64,000 bases of DNA, taken from positions 1,270,512 to 1,334,511 of the forward strand of contig CP070701.1 in assembly GCA_020349885.1 (NCBI GenBank). Reading direction: 5' to 3'. A program made the position numbers and the translations under genes. Below the pieces are notes generated by a model that saw only the letters and a program-made list of their open reading frames with translations, made no database searches and was not told the origin of the DNA. The number at the start of each line of letters is the position of its first letter. The stretch's first letter is position 1. The stretch comes from Acidobacteriota bacterium (GTDB lineage: Bacteria > Acidobacteriota > G020349885). Of the stretch, positions 3,764 to 64,000 are shown piece by piece.

Positions 3764-3883
3764 GAGACTTTCGTTGAATGTCCCTGTTTGGCTATATAGA
3801 AAGACCATTTTACCATACCCGCCTGCAACAAGGCCGGTGGGAAGCTGTCGGCCTGCCTGAAAATTCGCAATTTCCGGAACCAT

Positions 3884-19216: not shown

Positions 19217-19393
19217 GCCTTGATTCTTTCGGGACTTGCCCCGATGCACGCATCGGGGCTTGCCGCCGGGGAGGAGGCGTGGCCGTGGGCGCGGCCTACG
19301 CGTTCGCCGCCGGCCCTTGCTTGATGCCGTGCCTTGTGAGGTCATCCAGATATTTTACCATCAAACCGCTCGTTTTGCCCGGCCGGGCGGCGG

Positions 19394-41642: not shown

Positions 41643-42092
41643 ATGGCGGATCCCAAGAAAGAACGTGTGTACCAAATTATCAACCTCGTGGCCGTTCTGG
41701 TGGTGGGCATCGTGATCGGCATCATCGTCGTTCAGAAGTACCACGGGCAGCCGGAGGAAGAGGTGCTGGATGAAGTGATAACCTCTCCGGCCGACCCCAC
41801 GGCAACGCAGCCGCTTACGACCGATAGTACCATACAGGTCACGCCCAAAGTGACGCCTCCTGCGGAGCCTTTGCCGCCGGTGAAGCTGAGCCAGCGCTCG
41901 AAGGTGCTCGCCACCGAGTTCCGTTGCCCTTGCAGATGCGGTCACATGCTCATCGAATGCAACTGCGCGAAAGTGCCCGGCCAGCGTGACGCCAAGGCGC
42001 TCCTGCAGGCGCTCGTGGATCAGGAGAAACCAAGCGACGAGATCCGCCGGGCCATGAGTGAACGCTTCGGCGACGACATCATTATCCAATAA
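41643..42092 (+). CDS. membrane-anchored Cys-motif protein, CcmH/NrfF-like C-terminal domain (atypical CPCRCG...ECNC)
   Basis: One TM helix (IINLVAVLVVGIVIGIIVV), a Pro/Thr linker, then LATEFRCPCRCGHMLIECNC...DEIRRAMSERFGDDI. This parallels the CcmH layout (LRCP.C...EI...M..RYGD). AT-richer than the flanks. Confidence 0.5.
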   Translation: MADPKKERVYQIINLVAVLVVGIVIGIIVVQKYHGQPEEEVLDEVITSPADPTATQPLTTDSTIQVTPKVTPPAEPLPPVKLSQRSKVLATEFRCPCRCGHMLIECNCAKVPGQRDAKALLQALVDQEKPSDEIRRAMSERFGDDIIIQ

Positions 42093-50143: not shown

Positions 50144-50935
50144 TCAGAATCCCACCTCGAAAAAGTGAAACGCGCTCCGGTTGGGGAGGAGCGCGATGCC
50201 CCAGGCCGCAAACAGGAAAAACGCGTAGGCCAGTGCAAGAAGCCACGCCAGGCGGCGGCCGCCCCAGCGGTGGAATATTCGCATGTGAACGGCGAGCCCC
50301 ATCGCGAGCCAGGAGCACACCGTCGTGGTCTCTATTATGTCCCAGCTCCACCACCGGCCGATGAGCTGGAACTCGTAGATCGAGCCGAGCGCAGTTGCAA
50401 TGGAAAGCGCGGCGAAGGCGAAAAGAAGCCACGCCAGCGTCTTCTCGTCCGTCCGCGCCTGCTTTTCCGGAGGCGCGGCGCCGCGGCGGACGAGGGCGCG
50501 GCCGGCGTTGAGGAACGCCACGGACAGGCCCCAGAACGCCACCCAGGCGAAGAGCGCGTGGAACTCGGCCCACAGGCTCTGCTCCGAGATCGTTAGCGGA
50601 ATTCTCCGGGTGTTGAAGGAGACGCCCCAGAGCAGGAGGGCGGCGTTGAGCCACGCGCCGGCGCGGCACACGTCCCGGAGCGCGGCGTCCAGCCGGAACA
50701 GGACGACCCACCCGATGGAGAGCACCCAGACGGCGGCGAGGGAGTTCTCGTAGGTCCCGAACACGGGCGCGTGTCCGACTCCGGCCCACCGCACCGAGAC
50801 CGTGGCGGTGGCGAGAAGGGCCGCGGCGACAAATAGCATTCCCCGCGCGAGGGCCCTCCCGCGCGCGGGCCACAGCCCCGCCGCGACGTGCGCCGCAAGC
50901 GTCAGTCCCCACAGCAACGCTTCCGGGCCGGTCAT
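50144..50935 (-). CDS. ccsA: cytochrome c biogenesis protein CcsA (System II heme-handling subunit), copy 1
   Basis: W-rich motif GRWWSWDIIET and conserved His residues. Start ATG 50935 in an ATGA overlap with resB. Confidence 0.82.
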   Translation of the reverse strand: MTGPEALLWGLTLAAHVAAGLWPARGRALARGMLFVAAALLATATVSVRWAGVGHAPVFGTYENSLAAVWVLSIGWVVLFRLDAALRDVCRAGAWLNAALLLWGVSFNTRRIPLTISEQSLWAEFHALFAWVAFWGLSVAFLNAGRALVRRGAAPPEKQARTDEKTLAWLLFAFAALSIATALGSIYEFQLIGRWWSWDIIETTTVCSWLAMGLAVHMRIFHRWGGRRLAWLLALAYAFFLFAAWGIALLPNRSAFHFFEVGF

Positions 50936-52254
50936 GCGCTGAGCGCTCCGCGCGCCAGCTTCAGCGCCCGGCGGACGACACGGGAGCCGAAGGTTTTTGG
51001 AAAGAGCGGGCTGTGCGCGCCCACGATGAGAACCGCTCCGCCGCCGGGCAGGGAGGACGCCAGCTCCGTCCGCGCCGCGACGCTGCGCTGGTGCCGCACG
51101 AGGCGTACGGCGAGGCCCGCGAGCGCCACCGCGTAGCCGGAAAAAACCAGGATGTAGCCGCGGGTGCGCTGAATGCGGAAGTGGCCGTAGTAGCGGATGT
51201 CGGGAAAGCGAAGGGAGTATTGATCGAACCGGACGGTCTCTCCGGGCCGCACGAGGCCCCGGAACGCCTCCCGCGGCGGCGGCGGGGAGTTTCTCTGGAT
51301 TTGAACCTTGTAGAGAGGATTTTTCAGATTGTGGGTCAGCGTGAACACGTCTTCCCCCTTCACGGCGTGGTCCGGAAACACCTGGACGGCGCACTCGTAG
51401 GGAAGCTCGCCGAGGGGGAACGCGTCCCACAGGCCGGCGGGAACGATGGAGAGGTTCATGTAGGAGCGATAAATTTCCCGCCCCGCCTCGTCCGTCACGA
51501 CGCATTCCGGCGCGTAGCCGAAGCCGCGAAGCGCCACGATGGCCCCCTCGTGGAAGAGCGGCGTGTTTATCCACATGCGCTTTTCACTGGCGAGCGTCTC
51601 AGCGGGATAAGCCACGCGCGCGTACAGGTCGGTGAAGAGAAAATTATCCTTCCAGAACCGGGGAATAACCTTTTCGAGCTTGAACGAGACGCGCGGGTAC
51701 GACTCGGCGGGAGAATCTTTCGGAAACAGGTACTCTTCCGGAGCGCCGCGGAAGGCCTGCCCCTCCGTGAGAACCACCTCCCCGTGGAAGGGGCTGGCGA
51801 GCTCGACGAGATAGGCCAGCACGATGAGCAGGAAGACGGTGTGGAAAACGAGCGTGCCCCACAGGCTGCGCTCCCCGACGGCCGCGTGGAAGCCGTCTTC
51901 CGTGCTTCGGACGCGGTAGCCCCGCCGCCGCAGGCTGGCCCGGAGCGCGGTCTTCACGCGCTCGGCGCGCTCCGGGGGCATCCGCAGCGCAAGCACCGTC
52001 GGTAGCGCGGGGACTCCGGCCACCCGGACGTGCCGGCCGTGCCATAGATGGAAGGCGGTGCGCCCGACGTAGAAGACGCTGTTGAGCGCCAGCGCGAAAA
52101 AGAGCGCAAGGAAAGGCCACTCCGAAGCGATGCCGCGCAGCGTGGCGAAGGGCACGCCGTAGATTTGATAGGGAATCATGAAAACGGCGATGGCCGCAAG
52201 GAGCACCGTCATCAGATAAACCGAGAGGCGGGGGGAGGCGAGAAACTTTATCAC
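50932..52254 (-). CDS. resB: cytochrome c biogenesis protein ResB/CcsB, copy 1
   Basis: N-terminal LASPRLSVYLMTVLLAAIAV, a large soluble loop and a C-terminal TM pair, directly upstream of ccsA. GTG start at 52254 (GTGA overlap). Confidence 0.72.
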   Translation of the reverse strand: MIKFLASPRLSVYLMTVLLAAIAVFMIPYQIYGVPFATLRGIASEWPFLALFFALALNSVFYVGRTAFHLWHGRHVRVAGVPALPTVLALRMPPERAERVKTALRASLRRRGYRVRSTEDGFHAAVGERSLWGTLVFHTVFLLIVLAYLVELASPFHGEVVLTEGQAFRGAPEEYLFPKDSPAESYPRVSFKLEKVIPRFWKDNFLFTDLYARVAYPAETLASEKRMWINTPLFHEGAIVALRGFGYAPECVVTDEAGREIYRSYMNLSIVPAGLWDAFPLGELPYECAVQVFPDHAVKGEDVFTLTHNLKNPLYKVQIQRNSPPPPREAFRGLVRPGETVRFDQYSLRFPDIRYYGHFRIQRTRGYILVFSGYAVALAGLAVRLVRHQRSVAARTELASSLPGGGAVLIVGAHSPLFPKTFGSRVVRRALKLARGALSA

Positions 52255-52724
52255 GTGGTGTCCACCGAAGAATGAGGCGATACAACCTCGAGTTCGGAAA
52301 TCACCCACCGCCCTTCTTGGAGCACGAGGCGGTAGAGCACTTCCTGGGAAAAAATTTCTTCCTCCTCGGCGGGAAGACGGGTTTCGGAAGAAATCTTCGT
52401 GCACGTCCAGCGCTCTTTCGTCCGGACCGAGACCTCGGAGTCCTCGACGCGCGTTTCCACGACGGTGAGCTCGTGGAGGTCGCAGCTGAGAAGCCTTTCC
52501 TGCTTGAGCAGGTAGAGGATGTATTCGGTGACGCGCGAGTGCTCCTCGGGGGTCGTGTAGCGGGCCACCAGGTCTGGGTCGGGGCGGAGGTAGGCGTCGC
52601 GGAGGGCGTCGTTGTAGCGGCGCACTACCTCCACCGCCGCCTTTTTCGGGCCCTGGGCGCAGGCCCAGCATGCCGCTGCGGCGAGAACCAGGCTACAGAA
52701 GCTGCGTGTGCGTCGCGGGAACAA
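52251..52724 (-). CDS. hypothetical lipoprotein between the two ResB/CcsA pairs
   Basis: Signal peptide with a Cys (SLVLAAAACWAC) and a ~130-aa soluble domain. No family recognised. Confidence 0.5.
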   Translation of the reverse strand: MFPRRTRSFCSLVLAAAACWACAQGPKKAAVEVVRRYNDALRDAYLRPDPDLVARYTTPEEHSRVTEYILYLLKQERLLSCDLHELTVVETRVEDSEVSVRTKERWTCTKISSETRLPAEEEEIFSQEVLYRLVLQEGRWVISELEVVSPHSSVDTT

Positions 52725-53514
52725 ACCCTATGCCCCAGAAGTAGATGATGTTTGTAATGAGGGCCAGGAGCGCGTACCAGGCCGCCGTCCGGCCCCGCAT
52801 GCCGAACATCAGGCGGAAGTGAAGAAAGAGGCCGTAGACGAGCCAGGAAATGAGCGACCACGTCTCGATCGGATCCCACGACCAGTAACTGCCCCACAGC
52901 CCGTGCGCCCAGATGGCCCCAGTCGCGATCATCAGGCCCTGGCCGATGAATCCGAAGAGGATGAAGCGGAACGTGAGGTCTTCCATGCGCGCCGGGGCGG
53001 GCAGGCGCTGAAGGAAGCCTCCTGCGCGGGGGGCGCGGTGGGATTTGATTAGATAGAAAAGGCCCAGGCCCGCCGCCGCCACGAAGCTGCCCCACGAAAG
53101 CCACGCGAACCCCACGTGCACCCAGAGCCAGTTGCTCTGGAAGGGAGGCGCGAGCGGGCGTATCTCGTTCTCCGCCATCACGCCGCAGCCCAGCATGATG
53201 AGCGCCACGGCCGCCGCCACCAGTCCGAGCGGGCGCAGGCTCTCGCGCCTCCAGGCGGCGACGAGGTAGACGACGCCCGCGAACCAGGCGCCGGCCGCCG
53301 CGTGCTCGATCGGCTCCGCCACTGGAGGGTGGCCCGACGCGGCCCAGCGCACCGCGACGGCGAGCGTGTGGAGGGCGAAGGCCCACGGAAACACCAGCCA
53401 CGCCCACCTGAGGCGGCGCTCCGAGTGGAACACCCAGCCGCTCAGGAACAGGGCGGCGGCCACGGCGTAGCCCGCAATTGCGCCCCAGAGAATCGACCCT
53501 TCCGCGATGATCAT
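52693..53514 (-). CDS. ccsA: cytochrome c biogenesis protein CcsA, copy 2
   Basis: WGSYWSWDPIETWS tryptophan-rich motif. ATGA overlap with the resB copy 2 stop. Confidence 0.88.
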   Translation of the reverse strand: MIIAEGSILWGAIAGYAVAAALFLSGWVFHSERRLRWAWLVFPWAFALHTLAVAVRWAASGHPPVAEPIEHAAAGAWFAGVVYLVAAWRRESLRPLGLVAAAVALIMLGCGVMAENEIRPLAPPFQSNWLWVHVGFAWLSWGSFVAAAGLGLFYLIKSHRAPRAGGFLQRLPAPARMEDLTFRFILFGFIGQGLMIATGAIWAHGLWGSYWSWDPIETWSLISWLVYGLFLHFRLMFGMRGRTAAWYALLALITNIIYFWGIGFVPATHTQLL

Positions 53515-54895
53515 GGGGAAGGCGAATCCTCGCTCGGTCGCGGCGCTTCGAGAAGGCGCTCCGCCTCCTCCTCGAATTCCTCCTTGAAGAGGGCGGGGCA
53601 GTGGGGCGAGTGGCCGCGGACGAGAAGCTCGCCGCCGCGCCGCTCGATCCAGAGGCGGCGCTCGTAGTCCCAGAAGCGCACGCCGAGAGCCGCGGTTCCG
53701 CCGAAGAAGGAGACGAACAGAAGGAAAAGGCCGAACTCCCGCACCACGCGCAGGCTGACCCAGCGGCGCACGTCGGTGAAGAGCACGCGGTATTCCCCCG
53801 CCGCGTCATGCCCCGGCTGGAGAGAGGGAAAGGCGACGCTCCGGCCCTGGTGCAGGAACCCCTCGTACAGGAGCTCCCCGCGGCGGAGGATGCGGGCGTG
53901 GAAGGCGGGATTGGAAAGGGCGGAGGTCAGGCTTACGGCGCGCCCCTCTTCGTCCACCGAAAAATCCGGATAGAAGGTCAGCTCGAGGCGCAGCCCCAGC
54001 TCGGGCGCCTCGAAGGAGTCCTCGCGGTAGCCCATCACGCTCAGGTTCACGTACTGGTCGAAGCGGAGATTCTCGTTTTCGTCCCAGAGCTGAAAGCGCG
54101 GCGAGAACCCCTGGCGGTGGAGGATGAAATGGGTTCCCTCAAGCGCCCAGGGCTCGTTGACCCTCATGGTGACCCACTTGGCGTCTCGAGTCGGGGCGTC
54201 GTAACGAAAATCCGCCCGGTATTCGACGGGATGAATCTCCTCCTCGTACACGGCCTCGAAGCGCTCAAGGGTGAGCAAGCCTGGAGGCAAAAAAAAACTC
54301 TGGGTCTCCTCACGACCTTTTGAAGCGACTCTGGGACGAGCGGCACCGTCTGCCCCTCGGCCACGACCAGCGAGGCCGAAAGCCCGAACAAGGCCTGAAG
54401 TATGGCGCCCACGATAATCATGAGGAGGTTGGCGTGGAAGACGGTGGACCCCCAGAAGCCCCAACGCCCGCGCTTCGCGATCCACCGCCCCGGAGCCGGG
54501 GAGGCGACGCGCCACCCCCGCCCCGCAAGCCGCTGCAGGAGGAAGTCTTCCATATCTATTGGAACCGCTTTCGAGAACGCCTCTTCCGGCGGCCGGTCGG
54601 GGGCCCGGTTCCGGCGGGGGATGCGCTGGATGCTGCAGAGCGCGGTGTTGACGAGCAGGTAGAGGCAGAGGCCGATGAACGGCCAGCTTTCCACCACGCG
54701 TTGCGTGTTGAGCGCTTCCCCTGTCCGAAGCCAGACGGGGTGCAGCTGTGCTTCCTCCTGCTCGCTCAGGTAGAGAGGGTTCGGGAGCGCCGTGCTAAGA
54801 ATCAGGAGGCCCGTAATGAGGGAGAAGCTTACGATGGCGAGCGTCCGCGACGTAAGCAGCTTCCACACGGCGCGAGGTCCGGCATGCAGGCGCAT
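53511..54895 (-). pseudogene. resB: ResB/CcsB copy 2, reading frame broken at an A9/T9 homopolymer
   Basis: The N-terminal part (ORF 54164..54913, MRLHAGPRAVWKLLTSRTLAIV...LVVAEGQTVPLVPESLQKV) and the C-terminal part (ORF 53511..54515, ...FFLPPGLLTLERFEAVYEEEIHPVEYRADFRY...) are in different frames. They meet at the A run 54288-54296. Confidence 0.75.
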
Positions 54896-55115
54896 TTTTT
54901 TGCTCAAGTCCACAGTTTACCGTACTTTCTAGTGTAGTGCGCCCGACGCTTCTTTACAATGGCGGGGGCCATGAAAGGCCTTCAAATTCGCGTCCATGAG
55001 CGACGCACCGCTGCGCCCCGACTTTGTCGGGGCGAGCTTCGTGACGGCTTGATTTAGGAAAAAAGAGGGGATGTCGGGTCTTCTAAAGGCGGGGTGAAGG
55101 TCGTGGCTTTCGGGA

Positions 55116-56062: not shown

Positions 56063-56773
56063 CTATTTTTGCTCCGCCAGGGCGGAGAGCGCCCCGGCGC
56101 GGCGCTCGAGGCACTCGGCCCGCGCGCGCAATAACCACAGGAACACGAAAAACACCAGAAACACCACCGAGCCTAGCAGCAGCGTCTGCACCATCTCCGG
56201 CGCCAGTCCCCCTCCGCCGCTCGATCGCAACACTTTCGGGTGCTGGGTCTCGATGAAGTTCACGCACATGTACACCACCGGCACATCAAGGAAGCCCACG
56301 ATGGCGTAGACCGCCGCCAGGGCCGCCTGCCGCTCCTGCCCCGCGAACGCGCTCCGGAGCATCAGGTAGCCCACGTAGATGAACCACAGGATGAGCGTCG
56401 TCGTAAGCCGCACGTCCCACGTCCACCACACGCCCCACGCCGCGCGTCCCCACGCCGAGCCCGTCAGGAGCACCACCGTCGTGAACGCCACGCCCACCTC
56501 GGCGGCCGAGACGGCGAGGGCGTCGAAGACCGGTCTGCGCTTCACGAGGTAGAGCACGCTCGCGCAGGCCGCGAGAAAGAAGCCCAGGAAGGCGCACCAG
56601 GCGGAGGGAAGGTGTATGTAGAAAATCTTCTGGATGACGCCCATCTTGAGCTCGAGGGGCGTGAGCGCGATGACCCAGCCGAGGAACACGAAGCCGACCG
56701 CCGACACGATTCCCGCGGCGCGCAGCGCGCGGCTCGTCCACGGGGCGAAAAGGAAGCAGGCGTCTTTGTTCAT
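56063..56773 (-). CDS. ccmC: heme exporter protein CcmC (System I)
   Basis: IFYIHLPSAW, WGRAAWGVWWTWDVRLTTTL (WG.WW.WD.RLT signature), VNFIETQHP. Start MNKDACF at ATG 56773. Confidence 0.8.
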   Translation of the reverse strand: MNKDACFLFAPWTSRALRAAGIVSAVGFVFLGWVIALTPLELKMGVIQKIFYIHLPSAWCAFLGFFLAACASVLYLVKRRPVFDALAVSAAEVGVAFTTVVLLTGSAWGRAAWGVWWTWDVRLTTTLILWFIYVGYLMLRSAFAGQERQAALAAVYAIVGFLDVPVVYMCVNFIETQHPKVLRSSGGGGLAPEMVQTLLLGSVVFLVFFVFLWLLRARAECLERRAGALSALAEQK

Positions 56774-56930: not shown

Positions 56931-58535
56931 ATGAACAGCATGGAACTTAAGGTCAACCCTTCGAGCATGGGCCATTTCCGGAGCCTCGGAGACGTGGCGG
57001 GAGTCTCTGTCCTTCTCATCGCAGGCGTCATTGCGGCGGGGGCGCCGCATGCCGAAGAGGCGGCGGCACCTCCCCTGAGCGAGGAGACCGAGGCCTGCAT
57101 TGTGTGCCATGAGGCGGTGTCGCCGGGCATCGTGGAGGACTGGCGCCGGAGCCACCACGCTGGCACCACGCCCTCGGAGGCGCTCGCCGTGCCCGCGCTC
57201 GAGCGGCACGTCTCCGCCGAGTCCGTCCCGCCGCATCTCGCCGGGGTGGCAGTGGGCTGCTACGAGTGCCACAGCCTGAACCCGGAGGCGCACGCCGACA
57301 ACTTCGACCACTTCGATTACCGAATCAACGTCGTCGTCTCCCCGCCCGACTGCGCCACGTGCCACCCGGAGGAGACGAAGGAGTACGCCAGGAGCAAGAA
57401 GGCGCACGCCGTGGGGAACCTTGAGAAGAACCCCATATACTCCCTGCTCGTTGCGACGAACATCGGGGTCAAGGAGGTGCGGGACGGGGAATTTCTTGCG
57501 CACGCGCCCTCGCAGGCGGCGAAGATGGACGCGTGCTTCGGCTGCCACGGCACCCACGTCGAGGTGGAGGGGACGCGCGAGGTCGAGACCGACCTCGGCA
57601 CCATAGAGGTTCCCGCCCTCACGAACTGGCCCAGCCAGGGCGTCGGGCGCCTCAACCCCGACGGCTCGATGGGCGCCTGCACGGCGTGCCACCCGCGCCA
57701 CGGGTTCTCCATCGCGACGGCGCGGAAGCCCGCCACCTGCGGGCAGTGCCACCTCGAGCCCGACGTTCCCGCCCTCAACGTCTACAAGGAGAGCAAGCAC
57801 GGCAACATGTATTCTTCCGAGGGCGGCAAGTGGAACTGGGACGCCGTGCCGTGGAAGGTGGGGACGGACTTCAAGGCCCCGTCGTGCGCCGCGTGCCACG
57901 TGAGCCTTCTCACCGGCCCCGACGGCAAGGACGTCGTAGCGCCGCAGACCCACGACTTCGGGGCGAGGCTTTGGGTGCGCGTCTTCGGCCTTCCCTACTC
58001 GCATCCCCAGCCCAGGCACGGCGACACGTCCGTCATCCGAAACGCGGACGATCTGCCGCTTCCCACGACGTTCGCGGGAGTGCCCGCCTCGGAGGAATTC
58101 CTTCTGACCGAAGAGGAGCAGGCGGCCCGAAAGGCGGTCATGCAGGGCGTCTGCAAGTCCTGCCACAGCACCCAGTGGACGGAGGGGCATTTCGCCAAGA
58201 TGGACCGGACCGTCGAGGATACCGACCGGATGACGCTTGCGGCCACGAAGCTCCTTCAGGAGGCCTGGGCGCGCGGCCTCGCGGACCCGGAGAATCCCTT
58301 CGACGAAAACATCGAGGTGCTCTGGGTGAAGCAGTGGGTTTTCTACGCGAGCTCCACGCGCTACGCCTCGGCCATGTCGGGGCCCGACTACGCGGCGTTC
58401 AAGAACGGCTGGTTCGAGCTTACGCACAACCTCCAGCGCATGAAGGATTTCCTCAAGTTCGCCCCTGCGGAGGAACCAGAACCCGAGCCCGAGAAAAAGG
58501 GCAAGGGGAAGAAAGGCGGGCGAAAGAAGAGGTAG
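56931..58535 (+). CDS. octaheme c-type cytochrome, hydroxylamine oxidoreductase (HAO)-like family
   Basis: Eight CxxCH motifs (CIVCH, CYECH, CATCH, CFGCH, CTACH, CGQCH, CAACH, CKSCH). CTACHPRHGFS and YKESKHG resemble HAO-family blocks (from recall). Signal peptide present. AGGAGG sits 6 nt before ATG 56931. Confidence 0.7.
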   Translation: MNSMELKVNPSSMGHFRSLGDVAGVSVLLIAGVIAAGAPHAEEAAAPPLSEETEACIVCHEAVSPGIVEDWRRSHHAGTTPSEALAVPALERHVSAESVPPHLAGVAVGCYECHSLNPEAHADNFDHFDYRINVVVSPPDCATCHPEETKEYARSKKAHAVGNLEKNPIYSLLVATNIGVKEVRDGEFLAHAPSQAAKMDACFGCHGTHVEVEGTREVETDLGTIEVPALTNWPSQGVGRLNPDGSMGACTACHPRHGFSIATARKPATCGQCHLEPDVPALNVYKESKHGNMYSSEGGKWNWDAVPWKVGTDFKAPSCAACHVSLLTGPDGKDVVAPQTHDFGARLWVRVFGLPYSHPQPRHGDTSVIRNADDLPLPTTFAGVPASEEFLLTEEEQAARKAVMQGVCKSCHSTQWTEGHFAKMDRTVEDTDRMTLAATKLLQEAWARGLADPENPFDENIEVLWVKQWVFYASSTRYASAMSGPDYAAFKNGWFELTHNLQRMKDFLKFAPAEEPEPEPEKKGKGKKGGRKKR

Positions 58536-58655
58536 GCGGGGCTTGTCTGCTCGGCCATGGTAGAATGGGAAACGCCATGGTTTTCAACACCTGCCTATCG
58601 ACCTGCGCCCGCATACTCCTCAAGATGGGGGCTGAAAAGGACAAAGGTAAGTAGG

Positions 58656-59135
58656 ATGAAGAAGGAAAAGCGCAGATTAGCTTTGAAGTGTACGCTTTTG
58701 GTGGTTATTCAAGCGGGTGTCAATCTCTGCTACTTATGGTGGAAATTCGGCATGCCCTTTCGCTACTCCACATGTCCTTTCCCTATTTCACTTCCCTACT
58801 CCACTCGGATGCTTGTCGACGACGCGATCTTCCTGTTACTGGGTTCAACTTTTTGCATCGCCGGTTTCGCACTCCTGAGCCTCGTCAAGCGCGAAACCTT
58901 GGGTGCCGTCTTGGGCATGACTGTCTTTCTCGCCATTCAGTACCGCGCCATCCTTGGCGATCACTTTGGTTTAGACGATGGTTTTAACGTTGTTCTCTAT
59001 CCATCCCTTGTAGCAATTCTCGGCTCCGGCTACGCTATCGGCAGATGGTGGAAAAAGAGGGGGATTCTCGGAGCCCTGCTGGCGGTAGTTTTTTTCGTGA
59101 CAATATTTTATGTCTACGACATCTTCGTAGACTAG
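58656..59135 (+). CDS. small polytopic membrane protein (island paralogue 1)
   Basis: MKKEKRRLALKCTLLVV..., 4-5 TM helices, GYAIGRWWKKRG loop shared with 61293..61727. Confidence 0.55.
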   Translation: MKKEKRRLALKCTLLVVIQAGVNLCYLWWKFGMPFRYSTCPFPISLPYSTRMLVDDAIFLLLGSTFCIAGFALLSLVKRETLGAVLGMTVFLAIQYRAILGDHFGLDDGFNVVLYPSLVAILGSGYAIGRWWKKRGILGALLAVVFFVTIFYVYDIFVD

Positions 59136-59159
59136 CGTAAGGAGTCCGTCGCCCCCGCC

Positions 59160-59213
59160 CTACCGCCCAAAGCGGCGCTGGAGGGAGTGGAGGAAGAGGA
59201 CGATGAGGGCAAG
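59160..59213 (-). repeat. degenerate copy of the pentapeptide-repeat gene 3' end
   Basis: Plus strand CTACCGCCCAAAGCGGCGCTGGAGGGAGTGGAGGAAGAGGACGATGAGGG. The minus sense reads ...LALIVLFLHSLQRRFGR-stop. Confidence 0.7.
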
Positions 59214-59315
59214 ACTCAAGGGAAGAACAGAAGACAAAGGAGTAGAACAGGATAGCTGGGCACGTTAAAATAAAGGGGATGTTCACTAATTCGTGGTGGA
59301 GTAGTACATTGCATT

Positions 59316-60413
59316 ATGGGCGGTGAGTTGAAGGGCAAAGCCGGCAGGGAGCTCAAGATTCTCCTTCCGCTGCTTGTAGTGCTAGTGGTTGCGGTGATCT
59401 TCATCGCCCAGAGGGCGGTTCGATTCTTCCAAGGAGAGAAAGGTATTGGTTACCCGCTGGAATTGCACGCGGTGCTCGAACACGAAAGCAACGTTTTTGG
59501 AATCTCCTTTTCTCCAGATGGCAGATACATTGCAAGCGCCACCGGCGATGACAAGATTTCGATCTGGGACTGGAAGAACGGGCGTTTGGTCCAGCAGATG
59601 GATGACCCCGAATACGGCTCAACGTACGTTTACTTCTCGCCTGATGGAAAAATGCTCGCTTCGAGAGGCAACTACCGATACGTGAGATTCTGGGACGTGG
59701 AGAGCGGTGATCTTATTAGGACGCTGGAGCCTTACATGGCGGGAGATACTAATGTGAAAGAATGTGACTGCCCCGCCGCTGACATCGCCTTTTCATCCGA
59801 TTGGACGCAGATGGCGTACGCGACTGGCAATAATCCAATCTCGCTCTGGGATCTCGCAACAGACGAAGTGATAAAGACGTTTCCAACCCACCCTAAGGGA
59901 AGCAACTCTATCGCCCTTTCTCCGGATGGTAAACTGCTCGCCACAGTAGAATGGAGAAGCATCAGTATATGGGACATTGAAACTGAAGAGATCGTCGATA
60001 CCGTAAGAGTGAGCCCCACGCAATCTGCATTCCTTGTTCGATTTTCACCCGATGGAAACACCATAATCACGGAACATCAAGGTGAGTACCAACTATGGGA
60101 CGTGAAAGGATTGAAACGTTTGATGCGTACAAATGATAATTGGTGTAGTGGTTCGAACCAATCATTGTCCATGAGCGGTGAGATGTTGGCAGTCACAGAT
60201 CTGCGCGACATTCATTTTTGGGATACAAGGAGCGGGGAGCTTTTGTATTCCATAGAAAACGCTCATTGGAAGATGCCGCGGATGTTTAGGTTTGGTGAAA
60301 ACACGGAAATATGGTCCGTAGCTTTTTCACCTGATGGCAAATACCTCGCCTCGGGCGGCTGGGATGAGACGGTCAAGATCTGGAGGATGCCGGAAGAGAA
60401 TCGAGGAGGCTGA
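59316..60413 (+). CDS. membrane-anchored WD40-repeat (beta-propeller) protein
   Basis: N-terminal TM (ILLPLLVVLVVAVIFIA), then repeated SPDG..(L/I)AS....D..I.(I/L)WD units (e.g. FSPDGRYIASATGDDKISIWDW, FSPDGKYLASGGWDETVKIWRM). Confidence 0.8.
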   Translation: MGGELKGKAGRELKILLPLLVVLVVAVIFIAQRAVRFFQGEKGIGYPLELHAVLEHESNVFGISFSPDGRYIASATGDDKISIWDWKNGRLVQQMDDPEYGSTYVYFSPDGKMLASRGNYRYVRFWDVESGDLIRTLEPYMAGDTNVKECDCPAADIAFSSDWTQMAYATGNNPISLWDLATDEVIKTFPTHPKGSNSIALSPDGKLLATVEWRSISIWDIETEEIVDTVRVSPTQSAFLVRFSPDGNTIITEHQGEYQLWDVKGLKRLMRTNDNWCSGSNQSLSMSGEMLAVTDLRDIHFWDTRSGELLYSIENAHWKMPRMFRFGENTEIWSVAFSPDGKYLASGGWDETVKIWRMPEENRGG

Positions 60414-60417
60414 AGCC

Positions 60418-61131
60418 ATGTCGCAAGATCGCCCCGACCGCTTTGAAGATTCCGAATCCCGTACCGGGGCCGGCGGCGAGCCCGTTCGTGCCCTGGAGAG
60501 AGGAATGACGATGCAATCGAGAGTATCGTTTCGGGGCGGGGCGAGAATCGGATGGGTCAGTGCGACGTTTCCGTTCGCTCAGCTCTTCGCCGATCGTAAG
60601 AAACTAACGATTCGAGTCATGTTCTTGGGGAAATACGAGTTCACGCCAGAGCAGGTGGTCTCGATAGAGACCTACACGGTCATTCCGTTCTTAGGCTGGG
60701 GCGTACGCGTGCGTCACAACGTCGAGACCTATCCCAAGGAAATAATATTTTGGTGTTTTGGCATTCCTTCCTCCGTGGTCCGGAGGATCCGGGAGACGGG
60801 TTTTACGGGTCAGGGCGAGCCGTCCGAGGCAATGGAGAAGCGAAAGTGGTATTCCTTTCCGGTTCGTTGGCAGGCAATCGTCGTTGCCGTTGTGCTTTGG
60901 AATGCGTTGCTGTTAACCGATATTAGCTCGACGGGGGAGCCAGGAATGGGGTTCATGCTCGCGCTCATGATTTTGTTCCTCACTTCGGTGCTTCTGCCGC
61001 GGTCGGAGTTCTTGCAGGAGTTCGTCATTCGTCCGGACCGGAGCATCGATGAGATCAAGCCCGCCCTCGGCCTGCTGCAGCTCATTTCCGGCCTGATGCT
61101 TGTGTTCCTCATCGCTTCCAAAGTCGTTTGA
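60418..61131 (+). CDS. hypothetical protein: soluble N-domain plus three C-terminal TM helices
   Basis: ATG 60418 lies 4 nt after the WD40 stop, with GAGGAGG inside the WD40 3' end. No family recognised. Confidence 0.55.
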   Translation: MSQDRPDRFEDSESRTGAGGEPVRALERGMTMQSRVSFRGGARIGWVSATFPFAQLFADRKKLTIRVMFLGKYEFTPEQVVSIETYTVIPFLGWGVRVRHNVETYPKEIIFWCFGIPSSVVRRIRETGFTGQGEPSEAMEKRKWYSFPVRWQAIVVAVVLWNALLLTDISSTGEPGMGFMLALMILFLTSVLLPRSEFLQEFVIRPDRSIDEIKPALGLLQLISGLMLVFLIASKVV

Positions 61132-61161
61132 CAGATAGACAGAGGCGCTGCTGAGTCCGTT

Positions 61162-61288
61162 GGAAGGGAATAACGCCTCAGGCGGGGTCAACCGCCCCCG
61201 TCCTACCGCCGGAAGCGGCGCTCGAGGGCGTGGAGGAAGAGGGCGATGAGGGAGGGAAGGGCAGCGGCGTGGAGGTAGGCGAGAAGCG
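61162..61288 (-). repeat. long copy of the pentapeptide-repeat gene 3' end plus downstream flank
   Basis: 61212-61288 matches 63196-63272 with 2 mismatches in 77 nt (my count). It still encodes LLAYLHAAALPSLIALFLHALERRFRR-stop (stop at 61203-61205). GGAAGGGAATAA at 61162 matches the same sequence at 63160. Confidence 0.85.
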
Positions 61289-61292
61289 AACT

Positions 61293-61727
61293 CTACAGAA
61301 TGCTTTGTGCAAATGAAGCAATCTTGAAAATCAAGATAATGAGCGCTGTATAAATAGCCGCGGTCACTATTCGCCTGCGGAAGAACCACTTACCGATTGC
61401 ATAGCCAGCGAATGGAATGGGAATTGCCGCCACGACTATTGCTGGGATCATTGTCTCAAAGTGGAGTGTTGCTATGCCTGTGGATACTAGGATTCCTGCA
61501 ATCCCGCCAGGGGAAAGTTTCTGGAACAGCGAGTGGGAGATGTACGAGCCGTAGATACAATACGAAATACCTACTATGTAATAGCGCAGCAAACTCGCAA
61601 GCCACAACATCGAAAGATCAAAAAAGAAGAACCACGAAAAGAAAAACAACCCGACGAGCATTTGGATCCCCAACAATACAAGTAGCGTCCTCGCTATTTT
61701 CTTCTTATCGCTGTCCATCTTCATCAT
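61293..61727 (-). CDS. small polytopic membrane protein (island paralogue 2)
   Basis: MMKMDSDKKKIARTLLVLL..., AGYAIGKWFFRRR. The start context ATAATGATGAAGATGGACA is identical to paralogue 3. The stop TAG abuts repeat copy 61162-61288. Confidence 0.6.
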   Translation of the reverse strand: MMKMDSDKKKIARTLLVLLGIQMLVGLFFFSWFFFFDLSMLWLASLLRYYIVGISYCIYGSYISHSLFQKLSPGGIAGILVSTGIATLHFETMIPAIVVAAIPIPFAGYAIGKWFFRRRIVTAAIYTALIILIFKIASFAQSIL

Positions 61728-61737
61728 TATATTCGGC

Positions 61738-61761
61738 CTACCGCTCAAAGCGGCGCTCGAT
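61738..61761 (-). repeat. short copy of the gene-end core
   Basis: Plus strand CTACCGCTCAAAGCGGCGCTCGAT; minus sense IERRFER-stop. Lies 11 nt upstream of the paralogue 2 start. Confidence 0.7.
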
Positions 61762-61841
61762 CCACCAGTCTTTGCCGTTGTTGAATACGGCCATTTCGAG
61801 TTATCTCTCTTGATGCATAATTGCTAACCAAGGCGGGACAT

Positions 61842-62369
61842 TTAATTCCAAATAACACTCCAATACCAGCGGTGGAATAACCAGAGCCCCAGTACATAAA
61901 GACCAGAGAAGGACAGGGTAATCGCCGCTATCGAAGCAGGCTTGTTCGCAATCTTCCTCGCAAAGGCATGGCCTGTGATTACAATGGCTGCAATGCACGT
62001 GAGCAACCAGGTGACTACAGAGGGAGCAAGATCGCTCTTCCCGAGAGTTATGGTTACTACATAGAAGGCGAGAAGACCGAGCAATCCTCCTATGCGGAAA
62101 TGACCGGACAGTCGGTTGCCGACGGCAAGACCTGCGAGGCAGAATGGGATTCCGAGGAAAAACAGAATAGTAAACTCATCTCCCACCAAGAAGAACAGAA
62201 TAGAAAGCTCATTCCCTACCAACGACAGCCAAAGAAACTCGCAGAGGTCTTCCTGACAAAGAATAGCAAGCTTATACCCCGCCAACGACAGCTGAAGTAG
62301 AAGATGTGCTAGCACCAATGTTGCCGCCGTCCAAAGGAACCTGCGCTTCTCCTTGTCCATCTTCATCAT
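61842..62369 (-). CDS. small polytopic membrane protein (island paralogue 3) with internal 11-aa repeats
   Basis: MMKMDKEKRRFLWTAATLVL.... Internal repeat LVGNELSILFF / LVGDEFTILFF (33-nt DNA period near 62158-62223). Confidence 0.6.
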   Translation of the reverse strand: MMKMDKEKRRFLWTAATLVLAHLLLQLSLAGYKLAILCQEDLCEFLWLSLVGNELSILFFLVGDEFTILFFLGIPFCLAGLAVGNRLSGHFRIGGLLGLLAFYVVTITLGKSDLAPSVVTWLLTCIAAIVITGHAFARKIANKPASIAAITLSFSGLYVLGLWLFHRWYWSVIWN

Positions 62370-62460
62370 TATACTCGACTCCCCGTGTTCGTTTTCTTTT
62401 TCATGAGCCACGCAAGTATATCACTCTGAGAGAAGCACCTCATGGGGCGCAACGCCCCCC

Positions 62461-62481
62461 CTACCGGCGGAAGCGGCGCTC
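62461..62481 (-). repeat. short copy of the gene-end core
   Basis: Plus strand CTACCGGCGGAAGCGGCGCTC; minus sense ERRFRR-stop. Adjacent hairpin GGGGCG-CAA-CGCCCC at 62444-62458. Confidence 0.7.
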
Positions 62482-62561
62482 CTTTGATACGAGCGGTGCG
62501 CCGACGTAGAATGCTTCATGAAAGACGCCAAGAGAAACTAGGATGGAAGGAGAAAGATAAG

Positions 62562-63125
62562 ATGAGTGATGCAAATAAGCGTGTATACCCGGCTGAAAGG
62601 GCCGGCAGTCTCGATAATAGAATTCGAAGATGGCTGCAGAACCCTCGGAAGATATTGAGGCCGTATATAGAAGAAGGGATGACGGTTCTCGACGTCGGGT
62701 GTGGTCCGGGTTTCTTCTCTATCGACATGGCTCGAATGGTTGGCGAATCCGGTCGGGTTATCGCTTCCGATTTACAGGAAGGGATGCTTCAACAACTGAG
62801 AGACAAAATAAGAGGAACGGAGCTTGAGGAAAGAATCACGCTGCATAAGTGCGAGGCGGACAGAATAGGCGTGTCGGAGCATGTTGATTTTGTTCTGCTG
62901 TTCTACATGGTGCACGAAGTCCCAGATGCAAAGGCCCTCTTTGGTGAGATGAGCGCAGTGCTTAAGCCCGGCGGGCGAATTCTCGTCGTCGAGCCGCCGT
63001 TTCATGTTTCGAAATCGGCGTTCAAGGAAACTATCGAGAAAGCCAGAGACATCGGATTTGTGGATGCGGAAGGGCCGAAGGTGCTCTTCAGCAAGACGGC
63101 GATACTGAAAAAGGCGAAGAAGTAG
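62562..63125 (+). CDS. class I SAM-dependent methyltransferase
   Basis: Motif I VLDVGCGPGFF, an acidic residue after beta-2 (IASDL), LKPGGRILVVEP. RBS GGAAGGAG before ATG 62562. Confidence 0.8.
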   Translation: MSDANKRVYPAERAGSLDNRIRRWLQNPRKILRPYIEEGMTVLDVGCGPGFFSIDMARMVGESGRVIASDLQEGMLQQLRDKIRGTELEERITLHKCEADRIGVSEHVDFVLLFYMVHEVPDAKALFGEMSAVLKPGGRILVVEPPFHVSKSAFKETIEKARDIGFVDAEGPKVLFSKTAILKKAKK

Positions 63126-63186
63126 GGGGTATCTGCTTGGGCGGGCTTGTCCGCCCGCCGGAAGGGAATAATCCCTTAGGAAGAGC

Positions 63187-64000
63187 CTACCTCCTGAAGC
63201 GGCGCTCGAGGGCGTGGAGGAGGAGGGCGATGAGGGAGGGAAGGGCCGCGGCGTGGAGGTAGGCGAGAAGCGGGAATGTGAAGGAGCGGGAGGAGAGTTG
63301 ATTCACCAGCCCGCGGTAGTCCGGCACGCCGCCCACGAGAACTAGAAGAACGAGCCACGCGAGCGGGCGCAGCCAGCTCTCGCCGTAGTCGGAAAGAATC
63401 CCGTAGCACTTGTAGGCGATGAACTTCACGCACGCCGAGACGAGCTCGGGAAGGATCCACGGGCGCCCCCGCTGGGGCTCGTGCCAGTGATACCGCAAAG
63501 AATCCTCCTCCATTCGCATCGCGCCCGTGTGGAAGTCGCCCGCGACGCGGTATTCGCGCGCCGCTTCGTAGTTCTCCGTAAGCTGCCGGTAGGCGCGGGC
63601 GACGGGGGCGGGCTCGCTTTCCTCCCGGTGCTCTTCGTCGAATATGGCGTGCCTGCGGCCGGGAAGGCTCGCCCAGCGCACGTCCCGGAACGAGATCTTT
63701 TCAAGACCGGAAGCGTCGCCCACGAGGGCACGGGAAAAATTCACCTTGTGGAAGAGCACCGTCTCCGGCTTGTCGAAGCGCGCGCCGCGGAAATTCGCGC
63801 TTCCCTCGAAGACGCGTCCGCCGCTCTCGTCCCTGTCCGCTCCCTCGAAGAGGGCGCTTCCCAGGAACGCGGCGCTGGAAAAGCTCGCCTCGTCTCCGAA
63901 CGCGGCGTGAAGGAAGCTCGCCCCGTCTCCGAACGCGGCGCCCGAAAAGCGCGCCATTTTTCCGAACCCGGCGCGGGTAAAGTCCGCCCCGCCCCCGAAC
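63187..64000 (-). CDS. pentapeptide-repeat protein with C-terminal transmembrane segment (N-terminus beyond window)
   Basis: Repeats of the A(D/N)Fxx type (GAAFGDGASFLHAAFGDEASFSSAAF...). The frame stays open upstream of ATG 63957 to nt 64000 (FGGGADFTRAGFGK...). The AREYRVAGDFHTGAMRMEED block and a C-terminal TM follow. Its last 86 nt are the master copy of the island repeats. Confidence 0.75.
   Translation of the reverse strand, partial: FGGGADFTRAGFGKMARFSGAAFGDGASFLHAAFGDEASFSSAAFLGSALFEGADRDESGGRVFEGSANFRGARFDKPETVLFHKVNFSRALVGDASGLEKISFRDVRWASLPGRRHAIFDEEHREESEPAPVARAYRQLTENYEAAREYRVAGDFHTGAMRMEEDSLRYHWHEPQRGRPWILPELVSACVKFIAYKCYGILSDYGESWLRPLAWLVLLVLVGGVPDYRGLVNQLSSRSFTFPLLAYLHAAALPSLIALLLHALERRFRR

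Follow-up and report, generated by a model that had tools for sequence, protein, structure and literature searches.

Displaced gene ends mark a small hotspot of gene gain and loss between a cytochrome gene and a pentapeptide-repeat gene in an Acidobacteriota lineage

Four known analogues exist for the locus reported here, and the claim of the initial annotation that no described system uses such a site was too strong. Orphan tips have been described in Rhs/CDI loci (Jackson 2009, cited in PMC5361080) and orphan immunity arrays in the T6SS of Vibrio cholerae (PMC5361080). For T6SS immunity arrays and Rhs loci, displacement of 3' ends through homology-facilitated illegitimate recombination was suggested (PMC5361080). 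The ssrA islands of Dehalococcoides are tandem and are bounded by repeats of the target-gene 3' end (PMC3146451), and cis-mobilizable elements formed by accretion have been reviewed (PMC5704250). CALINs are clusters of attC sites without an integrase (PMC4889954). Finally, minimal mobile elements have been described in Neisseria (Saunders and Snyder 2002, as cited in PMC1797815).

The low-GC island and its gene-end copies

In the present study, a 64,000-nt stretch of DNA (the window) was analyzed, in which a low-GC block (58536-63186) lies between two convergent, conserved host genes. The first (56931..58535, plus strand) encodes an HAO-like multihaem cytochrome c according to the gene call and Pfam multihaem families; it has more than 2000 homologues, several named hydroxylamine oxidase in their source, and a GC3 of 0.886. 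The second, on the minus strand, encodes a pentapeptide-repeat membrane protein and occupies 63187..64000 in the window, the full 482 aa extending to the window-equivalent position 64635; its C-terminal basic tail is conserved throughout the protein family. The six island genes have a GC of 0.45-0.56 and a GC3 of 0.57-0.69, against 0.56-0.69 and 0.72-0.91 in the neighbouring genes, which bears out the description of the island as AT-rich. The island is compositionally distinct and consists of foreign low-GC genes. The gene-end copies divide it into five units of 0.5-2 kb, each with one or two genes in either orientation, and the gene content was as first described: a SAM methyltransferase, a WD40 protein and four membrane ORFs. 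No Pfam family was found for the four membrane ORFs, and three of them are distant paralogues.

The pattern CTACCNNNNNAAGCGGCGCT has five occurrences within the 64 kb window, always on the plus strand (59160, 61203, 61738, 62461 and 63187), and no further copy was found elsewhere in it; 100 dinucleotide-preserving shuffles gave a mean of 0.02 copies, and 0/100 reached five. These are the five same-orientation copies of the pentapeptide gene end (21-24 nt) that had been reported, and their minus-strand readings, each closed by a stop, were likewise confirmed as LERRFRR, ERRFRR (R2), IERRFER (R3), LERRFRR and LQRRFGR. All five lie on the minus strand as gene ends. The locus was compared with five short metagenomic contigs from related but different strains. 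R1 (63187-63272) is the live 3' end of the pentapeptide gene. R2 (62461..62481) is a 21-nt copy with the codons CGC CGG, resembling the L206 allele. R3 (61738..61761) has 24 nt and, together with its 33-nt left flank M (61762..61794, minus strand), reads MAVFNNGKDWWIERRFER up to the stop; M is common to the window, L204 and L205, and its substitution pattern, judged by eye, carries no sign of purifying selection. R4 (61203..61292) is a displaced gene end of 90-100 nt that matches the live gene end at 95% across 87 nt and the L002 gene at 91.8% over 98 nt (61195-61292), its 5' part being similar to L002 and L206 and unlike the live allele. As had been noticed, R4 follows the stop of mem2b in frame (...QSIL, stop, SSLLAYLHAAALPSLIALFLHALERRFRR, stop), and GGAAGGGAATAA is shared past both stops (61163-61174 and 63160-63171). 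R5 (59160..59209) is a displaced end of about 50 nt reading ...LIVLFLHSLQRRFGR before the stop, with L002 as its closest allele (94.8% over 58 nt, 59152-59209). An extension of R5 to 87 nt (61% identity) was rejected, as the comparison with L204 supports only about 50 nt (59160-59209).

The relics measure 21, 24, 50, 75 and about 100 nt, differ in their left edges and stem from different pentapeptide alleles. Between the window and L204, the live end is conserved at 24/24 positions, whereas the displaced copies are conserved at 17-20/24, no better than their flanks, and drift like neutral relics. The view that the copies are displaced ends of the flanking pentapeptide gene was supported.

The material between the copies combines foreign genes with host-derived modules. 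The segment at 58536..58655 holds the cytochrome-proximal part of the original spacer, recognized by eye from its likeness to the left part of the 43-nt spacer of L206, and the upstream region of memA. The memA gene (58656..59135, plus strand; GC3 0.60) encodes a small 4-TM membrane protein; in the window as in L204 and L205, it adjoins one and the same right flank, e. Flank e (59138..59159, minus strand), the 22 nt after the R5 stop, is 100% identical over 22 nt (stop codon included) to L003 5574-5595, which together with the following bases resembles the L206 spacer by eye; it also follows copies in L204 and L205. From these likenesses, flank e is probably the native 3' flank of the pentapeptide gene. 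Unit 4 carries a WD40 beta-propeller protein with an N-terminal membrane anchor (59316..60413, plus strand; Pfam WD40 families; GC3 0.57), which is not present in L204, and the membrane protein memB (60418..61131, plus strand), whose start overlaps the WD40 stop region. No relatives of memB were found in viral contigs, and its 90% cluster has one member only. Downstream of the R4 stop lie flanks d and X (61142..61202, minus strand), a hairpin plus TTATTCCCTTCC; X is found again in L204 and past the live stop (63160-63171). Unit 3 holds mem2b (61293..61727, minus strand), a small membrane protein of the mem family, in the slot of which L204 has a lipoprotein gene instead. The small membrane protein mem2a (61842..62369, minus strand) constitutes unit 2; the alleles in this slot in L204 and L205 have a protein identity of only 22-31%, yet their upstream flank DNA is 87-94% identical. 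Flank b (62370..62460, minus strand) comprises the hairpin GGGGCGTTGCGCCCC and the mem2a upstream region, resembles the promoter region of the pentapeptide gene itself and in L204 stands directly after the live gene end.

Unit 1 contains the SAM-dependent methyltransferase (62562..63125, plus strand; Pfam). It is faced by K (62482..62524, plus strand), a copy of the ccmF upstream region, which a promoter scan found to be sigma-70-like (TTGATA, 17 nt, TAGAAT; 62484-62512). BLAST aligned K with L003 5503-5550 at 87.5% over 24 nt, the likeness being longer by eye, and an identical joint of K with a copy was found in L002. Host-derived modules were duplicated as well, namely a promoter copy and a promoter-like stretch. 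The methyltransferase receives its last codons and stop from a relic of the cytochrome tail, AAGGCGAAGAAGTAGGGG (63111..63128, plus strand), which equals the end of the L206 cytochrome gene at 17/18 positions and is followed by a spacer-like hairpin. This terminator hairpin (GGCGGGCTTGTCCGCCCGCC) and flank a with the X motif fill 63129..63186, between the methyltransferase and the live gene end. In L205, the same methyltransferase gene adjoins the cytochrome gene and is flanked by a 40-nt, 98% direct repeat of the cytochrome end and terminator. The cytochrome gene end has therefore been duplicated in mirror image of the pentapeptide gene end. Moreover, the methyltransferase, the only unit found in two contexts, shows 97.6% nucleotide identity between the window and L205, against about 85% in neighbouring segments, and was therefore recently exchanged; the shared segment is bounded by the ribosome-binding site and the stop, away from the copies.

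Differences among related strains

A comparison of the locus in relatives had been proposed, and four related contigs proved to hold no units, fewer units, other units or reordered ones. L206 carries an empty site, with the cytochrome and pentapeptide stops 43 nt apart, in line with the claim of an insertion array. L204 has the arrangement of the window without 726 nt (R1 to R2), L205 that of the window without 2578 nt (R3 to R5), and adding 717 nt to an L208-like arrangement gives L204; units are thus gained or lost exactly from copy to copy, as had been anticipated. In addition, the order of units varies among strains. The locus is a genuine hotspot, on a small scale, at which genes are gained and lost. 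Among 12 junctions, each of the right-flank types b, e and f is preceded by either of two left-flank types; flanks therefore reassort at the copies. Furthermore, five of the seven right-flank types occur directly after a live gene somewhere (a in the window, b in L204, f in L208, g in L002 and an e-like spacer in L206), as would be expected of fossil gene-end junctions. Neither a generic dispersed repeat, nor an invariant locus, nor ordinary decay of paralogues, the outcomes named beforehand as contradicting the array, was found.

Mis-joining of metagenomic contigs at the repeated copies might produce such differences, as L204, L205, L206 and L208 are short and apparently of low coverage (2.3 in the record name of L208) and repeats of 21-100 nt can mislead assemblers. 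However, most copies have only 21-24 nt and differ from one another. Metagenome assemblers commonly use larger k-mers than that, which was counted against an artefact. Moreover, the lipoprotein gene, the divergent mem2 alleles and the 43-nt spacer are absent from the window and cannot be created by mis-joining, and the window arrangement was found in two assemblies, a 2.4 Mb contig and a 19 kb Logan contig. An assembly artefact is very unlikely.

Ordinary decay of tandem pentapeptide paralogues, with the copies as remnants after deletion or overwriting of the gene bodies, was also considered. All copies share one orientation, and in L002 a second pentapeptide paralogue begins 228 nt after the first. 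Flank b, found after R2 and after the live end of L204, resembles the pentapeptide promoter region; therefore, the b...mem2...copy units resemble the scaffold of a paralogue whose body was exchanged. However, under random deletion ends in a 1449-nt gene, the probability that all five relics are at most 100 nt long is about 1.6e-6. The foreign composition of the material between copies, the empty site, the strain-variable order and the one unit nearly identical in two contexts also argue against this explanation, which we regard as improbable.

How the array may have formed

The initial annotation offered repeated site-specific insertion or an integron-like cassette array as the explanation. 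Site-specific insertion was not supported as stated: the copies drift, have lengths between 21 and about 100 nt and go back to different alleles, the methyltransferase segment ends off the copies, and the cytochrome end and other host-derived modules were duplicated too. A related possibility is a dedicated, integron-like cassette system that is site-specific and whose recombinase would be encoded at another place in the genome. Its attachment site would be the last 21-35 nt of the pentapeptide gene, with crossover just after the stop codon, and each unit would bear one copy at its far end and be inserted or excised by the recombinase. This would fit the copy-to-copy unit differences in three comparisons, the reassortment of flanks, the strain-dependent unit order and the small foreign units of one or two genes in either orientation. 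On a change of flank, the variable codons of a copy keep to the left flank (AGGAGG precedes flank a in the window and flank b in L204), and the array can be read as copy-ended units from the K-plus-copy joint beside ccmF, the pentapeptide gene included. Moreover, integrons with clusters of attachment sites and no nearby integrase are known (PMC4889954). Against this possibility, no recombinase or transposase families were found in 65 ORFs covering 1-58.5 kb of the window, and no integrase or transposase in the gene calls up to 11 kb past its end; the statement that the window lacks a recombinase holds, also within 11 kb beyond 64000, where a search had been advised. The repeats are not attC-like, as had been stated: no RYYYAAC...GTTRRRY pairs occur anywhere in the window, and no conserved hairpin common to the copies was found. 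Furthermore, conservation of the displaced copies does not exceed that of their flanks, and in one of them the invariant decamer has been lost. The relics hold 50-100 nt of extra gene tail, variable in length and needless for a site. The segment borders of the methyltransferase, memB plus WD40, memA and the lipoprotein lie away from copies, a second, different sequence (the cytochrome tail) was duplicated in the same way, and degenerate copies stand beside ccmF. An integron-like system is rather unlikely.

The reading that we favour, to which we give about an even chance, does without a dedicated recombinase, which the array does not require: with each import, held in place by homology to the conserved flanking genes, the old gene end would have been displaced, and relics would later have recombined to delete what lay between them. 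The empty site, the unit differences, the flank reassortment, the different-allele relics and the mirror-image cytochrome duplication were observed directly; the steps of import and displacement, the route of DNA entry and the acting enzymes are inferred. DNA of a related strain, either a linear fragment or a circle bearing a copy of the gene-end junction, would enter and be anchored by homology in a conserved flanking gene, carrying its own gene end and the donor sequence downstream of that gene. The second joint would fall within or just past the resident gene end, so that the old end (21-100 nt) would be pushed downstream and left as a relic. Repeated rounds would build the array, and the same process could act from the cytochrome side. 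The relics, as direct repeats, could afterwards provide the short homologies by which whole units are deleted or re-joined, which would account for the exact copy-to-copy differences between strains.

The absence of an integrase or transposase in the window and 11 kb beyond was counted for end displacement. Several observations count against it. Independent comparisons place the breakpoint repeatedly at the same edge, right after TAGG, and two relics were trimmed to nearly the same 21-24 nt, both of which would be accounted for more simply by a site-specific enzyme. The perfect blocks common to the copies measure just 10 nt and 6 nt, a poor RecA-type substrate. Many right flanks start with a G-run (GCGGGGG), which could be part of a longer recognition site. 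In addition, displacement leaves unexplained the first entry of low-GC ORFs beside GC-rich junction modules.

Comparison with known systems

Minimal mobile elements are known as alternative fillings for a single site and are not known to form additive arrays separated by displaced gene ends. They resemble this locus in that differing small gene sets occupy one site between two conserved genes across strains, mobility genes are lacking and recombination within the flanking genes is the supposed means of exchange. In the present case the host belongs to an uncultured Acidobacteriota lineage rather than to Neisseria. The locus shares with integrons and CALINs small, mostly one-gene units of foreign cargo that are separated by repeated host-like sequence and vary among strains in order and content, possibly with no nearby integrase. 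Unlike them, it has no attC inverse cores, conserved hairpin or intI gene, its repeat is the coding end of the flanking gene, and its units carry promoter-like modules.

Accretion-type elements are exemplified by that at Streptococcus thermophilus fda. As in tandem islands, several units lie downstream of one gene, each bounded by a direct repeat of about 20 nt of its 3' end; some units have no integrase, and relatives have empty or differently filled sites. However, tandem islands measure about 10-30 kb, many with their own recombinase and a fixed crossover point, whereas the units here have 0.5-2 kb and no recombinase, the relic length varies and some borders lie off the repeat.

From Rhs and T6SS arrays the locus differs in that its relics comprise just the last 7-33 codons, from a conserved membrane tail, where those arrays have variable toxin domains, and its cargo is made up of unrelated genes in either orientation instead of cognate immunity genes. 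Moreover, the pentapeptide gene is not a known toxin, and the end of the convergent neighbour was displaced too. Nevertheless, in both cases older 3' ends that were displaced lie downstream of a live gene, in the same orientation and with accompanying genes, and the arrays vary among strains and lack an integrase. Growth is proposed to occur when imported DNA is anchored on the gene's conserved part and the second joint is illegitimate.

The repeated gene end and the genes between its copies

In the 64-kb window, the pattern CTACCNNNNNAAGCGGCGCT, which represents the repeated gene end with the core AGCGCCGCTTYNNNMGGTAGG, matched five times and at no further position, always on the plus strand (59160, 61203, 61738, 62461 and 63187), and shuffled sequences gave a mean of 0.02 matches per window. 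The five same-orientation copies described in the initial annotation were thus confirmed. R1, at 63187, is the live end of the pentapeptide-repeat gene and R5, at 59160, is the copy most distal from it; the distances between successive copies, counted from R5, are 2043, 535, 723 and 726 nt. On the minus strand each copy reads as the final 6-8 codons of this gene plus the TAG stop, or as a variant thereof, and every unit is bounded by such a direct repeat. The 61203 copy was indeed long and in frame, as had been noted: it matched the live gene end at 95% across 87 nt and followed immediately on the stop of ORF 61293-61727. The true length of the 59160 copy was about 50 nt; its alignment as an 87-nt repeat (61% identity) failed against the sequence of a relative.

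The full pentapeptide protein (482 aa) has a Pentapeptide_3 region and, at the C-terminus, a hydrophobic one. Distant family members retain its basic C-terminal tail (...LALRRxFRR or similar), and the relics encode 7-33 residues of this family-wide conserved tail. Because the tail is conserved across the family, the repeated sequence derives from the gene, and the gene has not borrowed a site.

The genes between the copies are AT-richer than their neighbours, as first noted (GC3 of 0.57-0.69 versus 0.72-0.91). They encode a SAM methyltransferase, a WD40 protein, a membrane protein (memB) whose gene start is overlapped by the WD40 stop region, and three small membrane proteins (58656-59135, 61293-61727 and 61842-62369), which are distant paralogues with 26-30% identity. 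A profile search with this family, termed mem, gave 7 matches in 1.84 billion representative proteins, only two of them outside the contigs studied, and the family is nearly confined to this locus. A 149-aa protein (P0280) was a further member, and the gene mem2a carries three imperfect in-frame 33-nt direct repeats at 62164-62297 (starts at 62164, 62197 and 62260). A defence or toxin link was also considered and rejected: with PADLOC, the cargo showed no toxin, immunity or defence match save a generic methyltransferase domain. Decay of tandem pentapeptide paralogues is an improbable source of the array, given that five relics all of 100 nt or less would arise under random deletion with a chance of about 1.6e-6 and that the cargo is compositionally foreign.

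Related strains, the empty site and the search for a recombinase

Five related metagenomic contigs (L204, L205, L206, L208 and L002) were reached through 90%-identity clusters of flanking and island proteins. In addition, the 19-kb Logan contig L003 showed full identity with the window in all genes checked and reached 11 kb beyond the window end; it is oriented with the pentapeptide gene on the plus strand, so that an L003 position equals 74636 minus the window position. In L206 the site is empty: 43 nt separate the cytochrome stop from the pentapeptide stop on the opposite strand. In L204, whose flanks were 88-93% identical to those of the window, the order is pentapeptide gene, divergent mem2 allele, lipoprotein gene, memA and cytochrome gene, without the methyltransferase unit and the WD40+memB unit. 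The order in L205 ends with mem2 allele, memA, methyltransferase and cytochrome gene, and in L208 a live pentapeptide gene (another allele or paralogue) is followed directly by the lipoprotein unit. L002 carries a pentapeptide gene with 71% identity, followed by the start of a second paralogue.

These arrangements differ copy to copy. The window minus exactly 726 nt (R1 to R2) gives L204, the window minus 2578 nt (R3 to R5) gives L205, and an L208-like arrangement plus 717 nt gives L204. The predicted gain or loss of cassettes exactly at the cores was therefore seen, which supports a cassette-like array. Moreover, the window, L204, L205 and L206 hold different gene content between the same two conserved genes, and mobility genes are absent. 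The empty site and the differing units together identify the island as an insertion array whose content and order vary between strains. The existence of an empty site and the differing unit order also speak against tandem-paralogue decay. An assembly artefact is still less probable, since the variant contigs hold sequence that is absent from the window. The evidence comes from one lineage and five short contigs, and it shows a genuine, clearly bounded and unusually readable phenomenon.

Searches for further arrays extended beyond these contigs. The pentapeptide gene had no relatives in species-representative genomes, and the called genes around its distant homologues P0003, P0021 and P0047 showed ordinary contexts with no cassette array. 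The core pattern had been proposed as a probe for similar loci in metagenomes, where at least 120 loci matched; the 80 listed carried one match each, none with a pentapeptide homologue, and these are chance hits, with the relative L002 not among the matches listed. Six of the chance matches (L036, L054, L077, L079, L095 and L115) had a related methyltransferase-like gene in common, and the pattern there was probably matched in or close to a single conserved gene of some unrelated organism. In viral contigs the core was matched twice, by chance, and no memB relative was found. The cytochrome gene outside its own 90% cluster had next relatives of about 64% identity and gave no further strains, nor did the ccmC clusters, whose contigs break inside the cytochrome gene.

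That whole units differ copy to copy between strains favours the main rival explanation, a site-specific system served by a trans-acting recombinase. Under this explanation, which we hold possible but rather doubtful, the copies would be the attachment site of a previously undescribed, functionally integron-like cassette system of Acidobacteriota whose recombinase gene lies at another place on the chromosome or genome. The system's substitute for attC would be the coding 3' end of the membrane pentapeptide-repeat gene, and perhaps that of the convergent cytochrome gene; ccmF and the cytochrome gene would mark the two ends of the array, and the pentapeptide gene would itself be one unit.

The absence of a recombinase from the window was borne out, as no Phage_integrase, resolvase or transposase family (Pfam) was found in the 65 ORFs of window positions 1-58.5 kb. 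The suggestion that one might lie beyond 64000 did not hold for the called genes through the next 11 kb beyond the pentapeptide gene, where no integrase, resolvase or transposase family was present. Among the ORFs scanned, an N6/N4 DNA methylase gene (18362-19345, minus strand) had no restriction partner, and ORF 15219-16256 gave a weak RmuC match. The repeats had been described as not attC-like, and this was correct. A regular-expression scan for attC inverse cores (RYYYAAC...GTTRRRY, 40-130 nt apart) returned 0 pairs in the whole window on both strands, and folds of the five junctions showed no common hairpin; these two results rule out an attC-like structure and also weigh against one dedicated site. 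By eye, the core bears no likeness to dif, so a dif/Xer-type site was rejected.

A relation to REP/RAYT elements, prompted by the GTAG at the stop and the hairpins that follow, was likewise rejected because no enrichment occurred in the window. With both strands of the 64 kb counted, GTAGGG occurred 29 times, which is about the chance expectation, and the L205 terminator palindrome was not above chance in the window. GTAGGG-headed palindromes were seen only in the intergenic region of L002 between the 71% gene and the second paralogue (3599-3830), which contains several of these REP-like structures.

Junction structure and the proposed displacement of gene ends

The relics measure 21, 24, 50, about 75 and about 100 nt and differ in their left edges, unlike the copies of one dedicated site. 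Between strains, the displaced copies had 17-20 of 24 positions conserved and their left flanks 79-88%, so they are conserved no better than their own flanks, whereas the live end was conserved at 24/24; this too is at odds with a dedicated site. R5 and the 5' part of R4 resemble the gene of L002 and the codons of R2 resemble L206, in each case rather than the live allele. Judged by these resemblances, R2, R4 and R5 derive from other alleles of the pentapeptide gene, a further point against a single dedicated site.

All 12 copy-bearing junctions were compared, with 60 nt scored on each side. The left flanks are of three types, the tail of the pentapeptide gene (G), a 33-nt stretch (M, 61762-61794) that reads MAVFNNGKDWWI, and a copy of the region upstream of ccmF (K, 62482-62524). 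M was rejected as a real 18-codon gene because its between-strain differences, by eye, were mostly non-synonymous. Three right flanks recur, namely a hairpin with the region upstream of the mem2 genes (b), the native flank followed by memA (e) and the region upstream of the lipoprotein gene (f), and each was found behind two different left-flank types: b behind K in the window and behind G in L204; e behind G in the window and L204 and behind M in L205; and f behind M in L204 and behind G in L208. Host-like modules other than the gene end are duplicated too, contrary to one dedicated site: flank b is similar to the promoter region of the pentapeptide gene itself, and K is a sigma-70-like copy of the ccmF upstream region that faces the methyltransferase. 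The right edge after TAGG recurred in three comparisons, whereas the left edges of the relics range over 21-100 nt.

Unit borders also lie elsewhere than a dedicated site would place them. The methyltransferase (62562-63125) is the only unit seen in two contexts, with 97.6% identity against about 85% in neighbouring segments, and its shared segment starts about 10 nt ahead of the ATG and ends just past the stop, so that its ends are not at the copies. WD40+memB (59316-61131) sits between R5 and X, a motif beyond the R4 stop that recurs beyond the live stop; in L204, X abuts a relic directly. MemA sits inside the old spacer, and the lipoprotein unit has its far border within a hairpin; none of these segments has its borders at the repeats.

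Furthermore, a 40-nt direct repeat (98%) lies on both sides of the methyltransferase unit in L205 (175-214 and 820-859) and consists of the last codons of the cytochrome gene, its stop and a perfect terminator palindrome. The methyltransferase of the window likewise has the cytochrome tail at its end, copied at 17/18 positions, with a spacer-like hairpin behind it. On these repeats, the end of the other flanking gene is displaced as well, in mirror image, a duplication that one dedicated site does not account for. The window reads: live cytochrome gene, part of the spacer, memA, flank e, pentapeptide-tail relic, cargo, cytochrome-tail relic, spacer-like hairpin and live pentapeptide gene. One crossover with a circle that bears the complete gene-end junction in a further copy would produce this layout. 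Of the cassette array first proposed, the gain or loss of whole units stands, and a dedicated site is opposed by the variation of the relics and by the off-copy borders.

The best reading, to which we give about an even chance, is that imports anchored on the flanking genes displaced the resident gene end, with deletion and re-joining between relics afterwards. Incoming DNA would anchor on the conserved flanking genes, either as a linear molecule whose second joint is illegitimate and falls close to where homology stops, or as a circle carrying a junction copy. Each import would deliver a new gene end together with the donor's downstream genes and push the resident end downstream, and later deletions and re-joining between relics would reshape the array. 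This displacement would account for the length variation, allelic origin and neutral drift of the relics, the mirror-image cytochrome relic, the borders off the copies and the lack of a recombinase. In keeping with it, five of the seven right-flank types follow a live gene directly in some strain. Displacement leaves poorly explained both the coincidence of several breakpoints at one edge, immediately after TAGG, and the first arrival of the low-GC ORFs. The mechanism has a precedent in what was proposed for T6SS immunity arrays and Rhs loci (PMC5361080).

Variation was also found on the other side of the pentapeptide gene. Beside ccmF, past the window end (L003 5503-5595, window-equivalent ~69041-69133), a promoter-like module, K0, is followed by a degenerate core copy with 6/22 mismatches; 22 nt there, stop codon included, are identical to the R5 stop plus flank e. 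This pair looks like the remnant of a pentapeptide gene that was deleted or like the beginning of the array, and in L002 the same joint of K and copy immediately precedes the pentapeptide promoter. The interval from ccmF to the pentapeptide gene holds an ArsR-family regulator with a CMD (carboxymuconolactone decarboxylase family) domain, an arsenite methyltransferase, a small ORF and a molybdopterin oxidoreductase. These genes are present at the window locus, partly present in L204, where the molybdopterin oxidoreductase gene is missing, and absent from L002; relatives of the oxidoreductase at 76-78% occur in Chloroflexota MAGs, without synteny. The variable upstream side covers L003 7900-9957 (window-equivalent 64679-66736, past the window end), L204 2828-2899 and L002 2083-2102, and all its joints lie about 39 nt ahead of the pentapeptide start codon. 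The ccmF-side copy and the variable upstream genes indicate that the variable region may extend as far as ccmF on one side and the cytochrome gene on the other, enclosing the pentapeptide gene. Two kinds of cytochrome c maturation genes (ResB-like; CcmC, CcmF and CcmH) lie near the HAO-like octahaem-type cytochrome gene (window 41643-42092, 50932-54913 and 56063-56773; L003 2930-5475).

Significance and comparison with known systems

If displacement is correct, the locus would be a legible record of single-gene gain and loss at a harmless spot between convergent genes, without mobile-element machinery, in which a leftover gene end stamps each past event. Moreover, 3'-end displacement, described so far for toxin loci, would then also apply to an ordinary membrane protein gene with unrelated cargo, in an uncultured and poorly known phylum. 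If the site-specific rival is correct, the locus would be a new kind of cassette platform, with a bearing on how genes become cassettes; the foreign ORFs, trimmed almost precisely to their ribosome-binding site and stop codon, sit between promoter, tail and terminator modules of host origin. Under either reading, the locus is a ready-made marker of strain-level variation in this lineage.

Integron and CALIN arrays (PMC4889954) are similar in scale, with small units, same-orientation repeats and strain-variable content and order as here. An adjoining intI-type gene is not required for a CALIN; with no attC in the window and no intI there or in the called genes of the next 11 kb, the locus falls outside the integron family. 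In its working it is similar to tandem islands delimited by repeats of a target gene's 3' end (PMC3146451), and its units are likewise bounded by direct repeats of such an end, but the cognate integrase that those elements have in at least one unit or nearby was not found here. Minimal mobile elements (PMC1797815) have alternative content between two conserved genes and no mobility genes, as does this locus. The variable toxin tips paired with immunity genes of Rhs, CDI and T6SS arrays were not found here, but in its working the locus is like the 3'-end displacement arrays, in which a live gene is followed by same-orientation displaced 3' fragments from other alleles.
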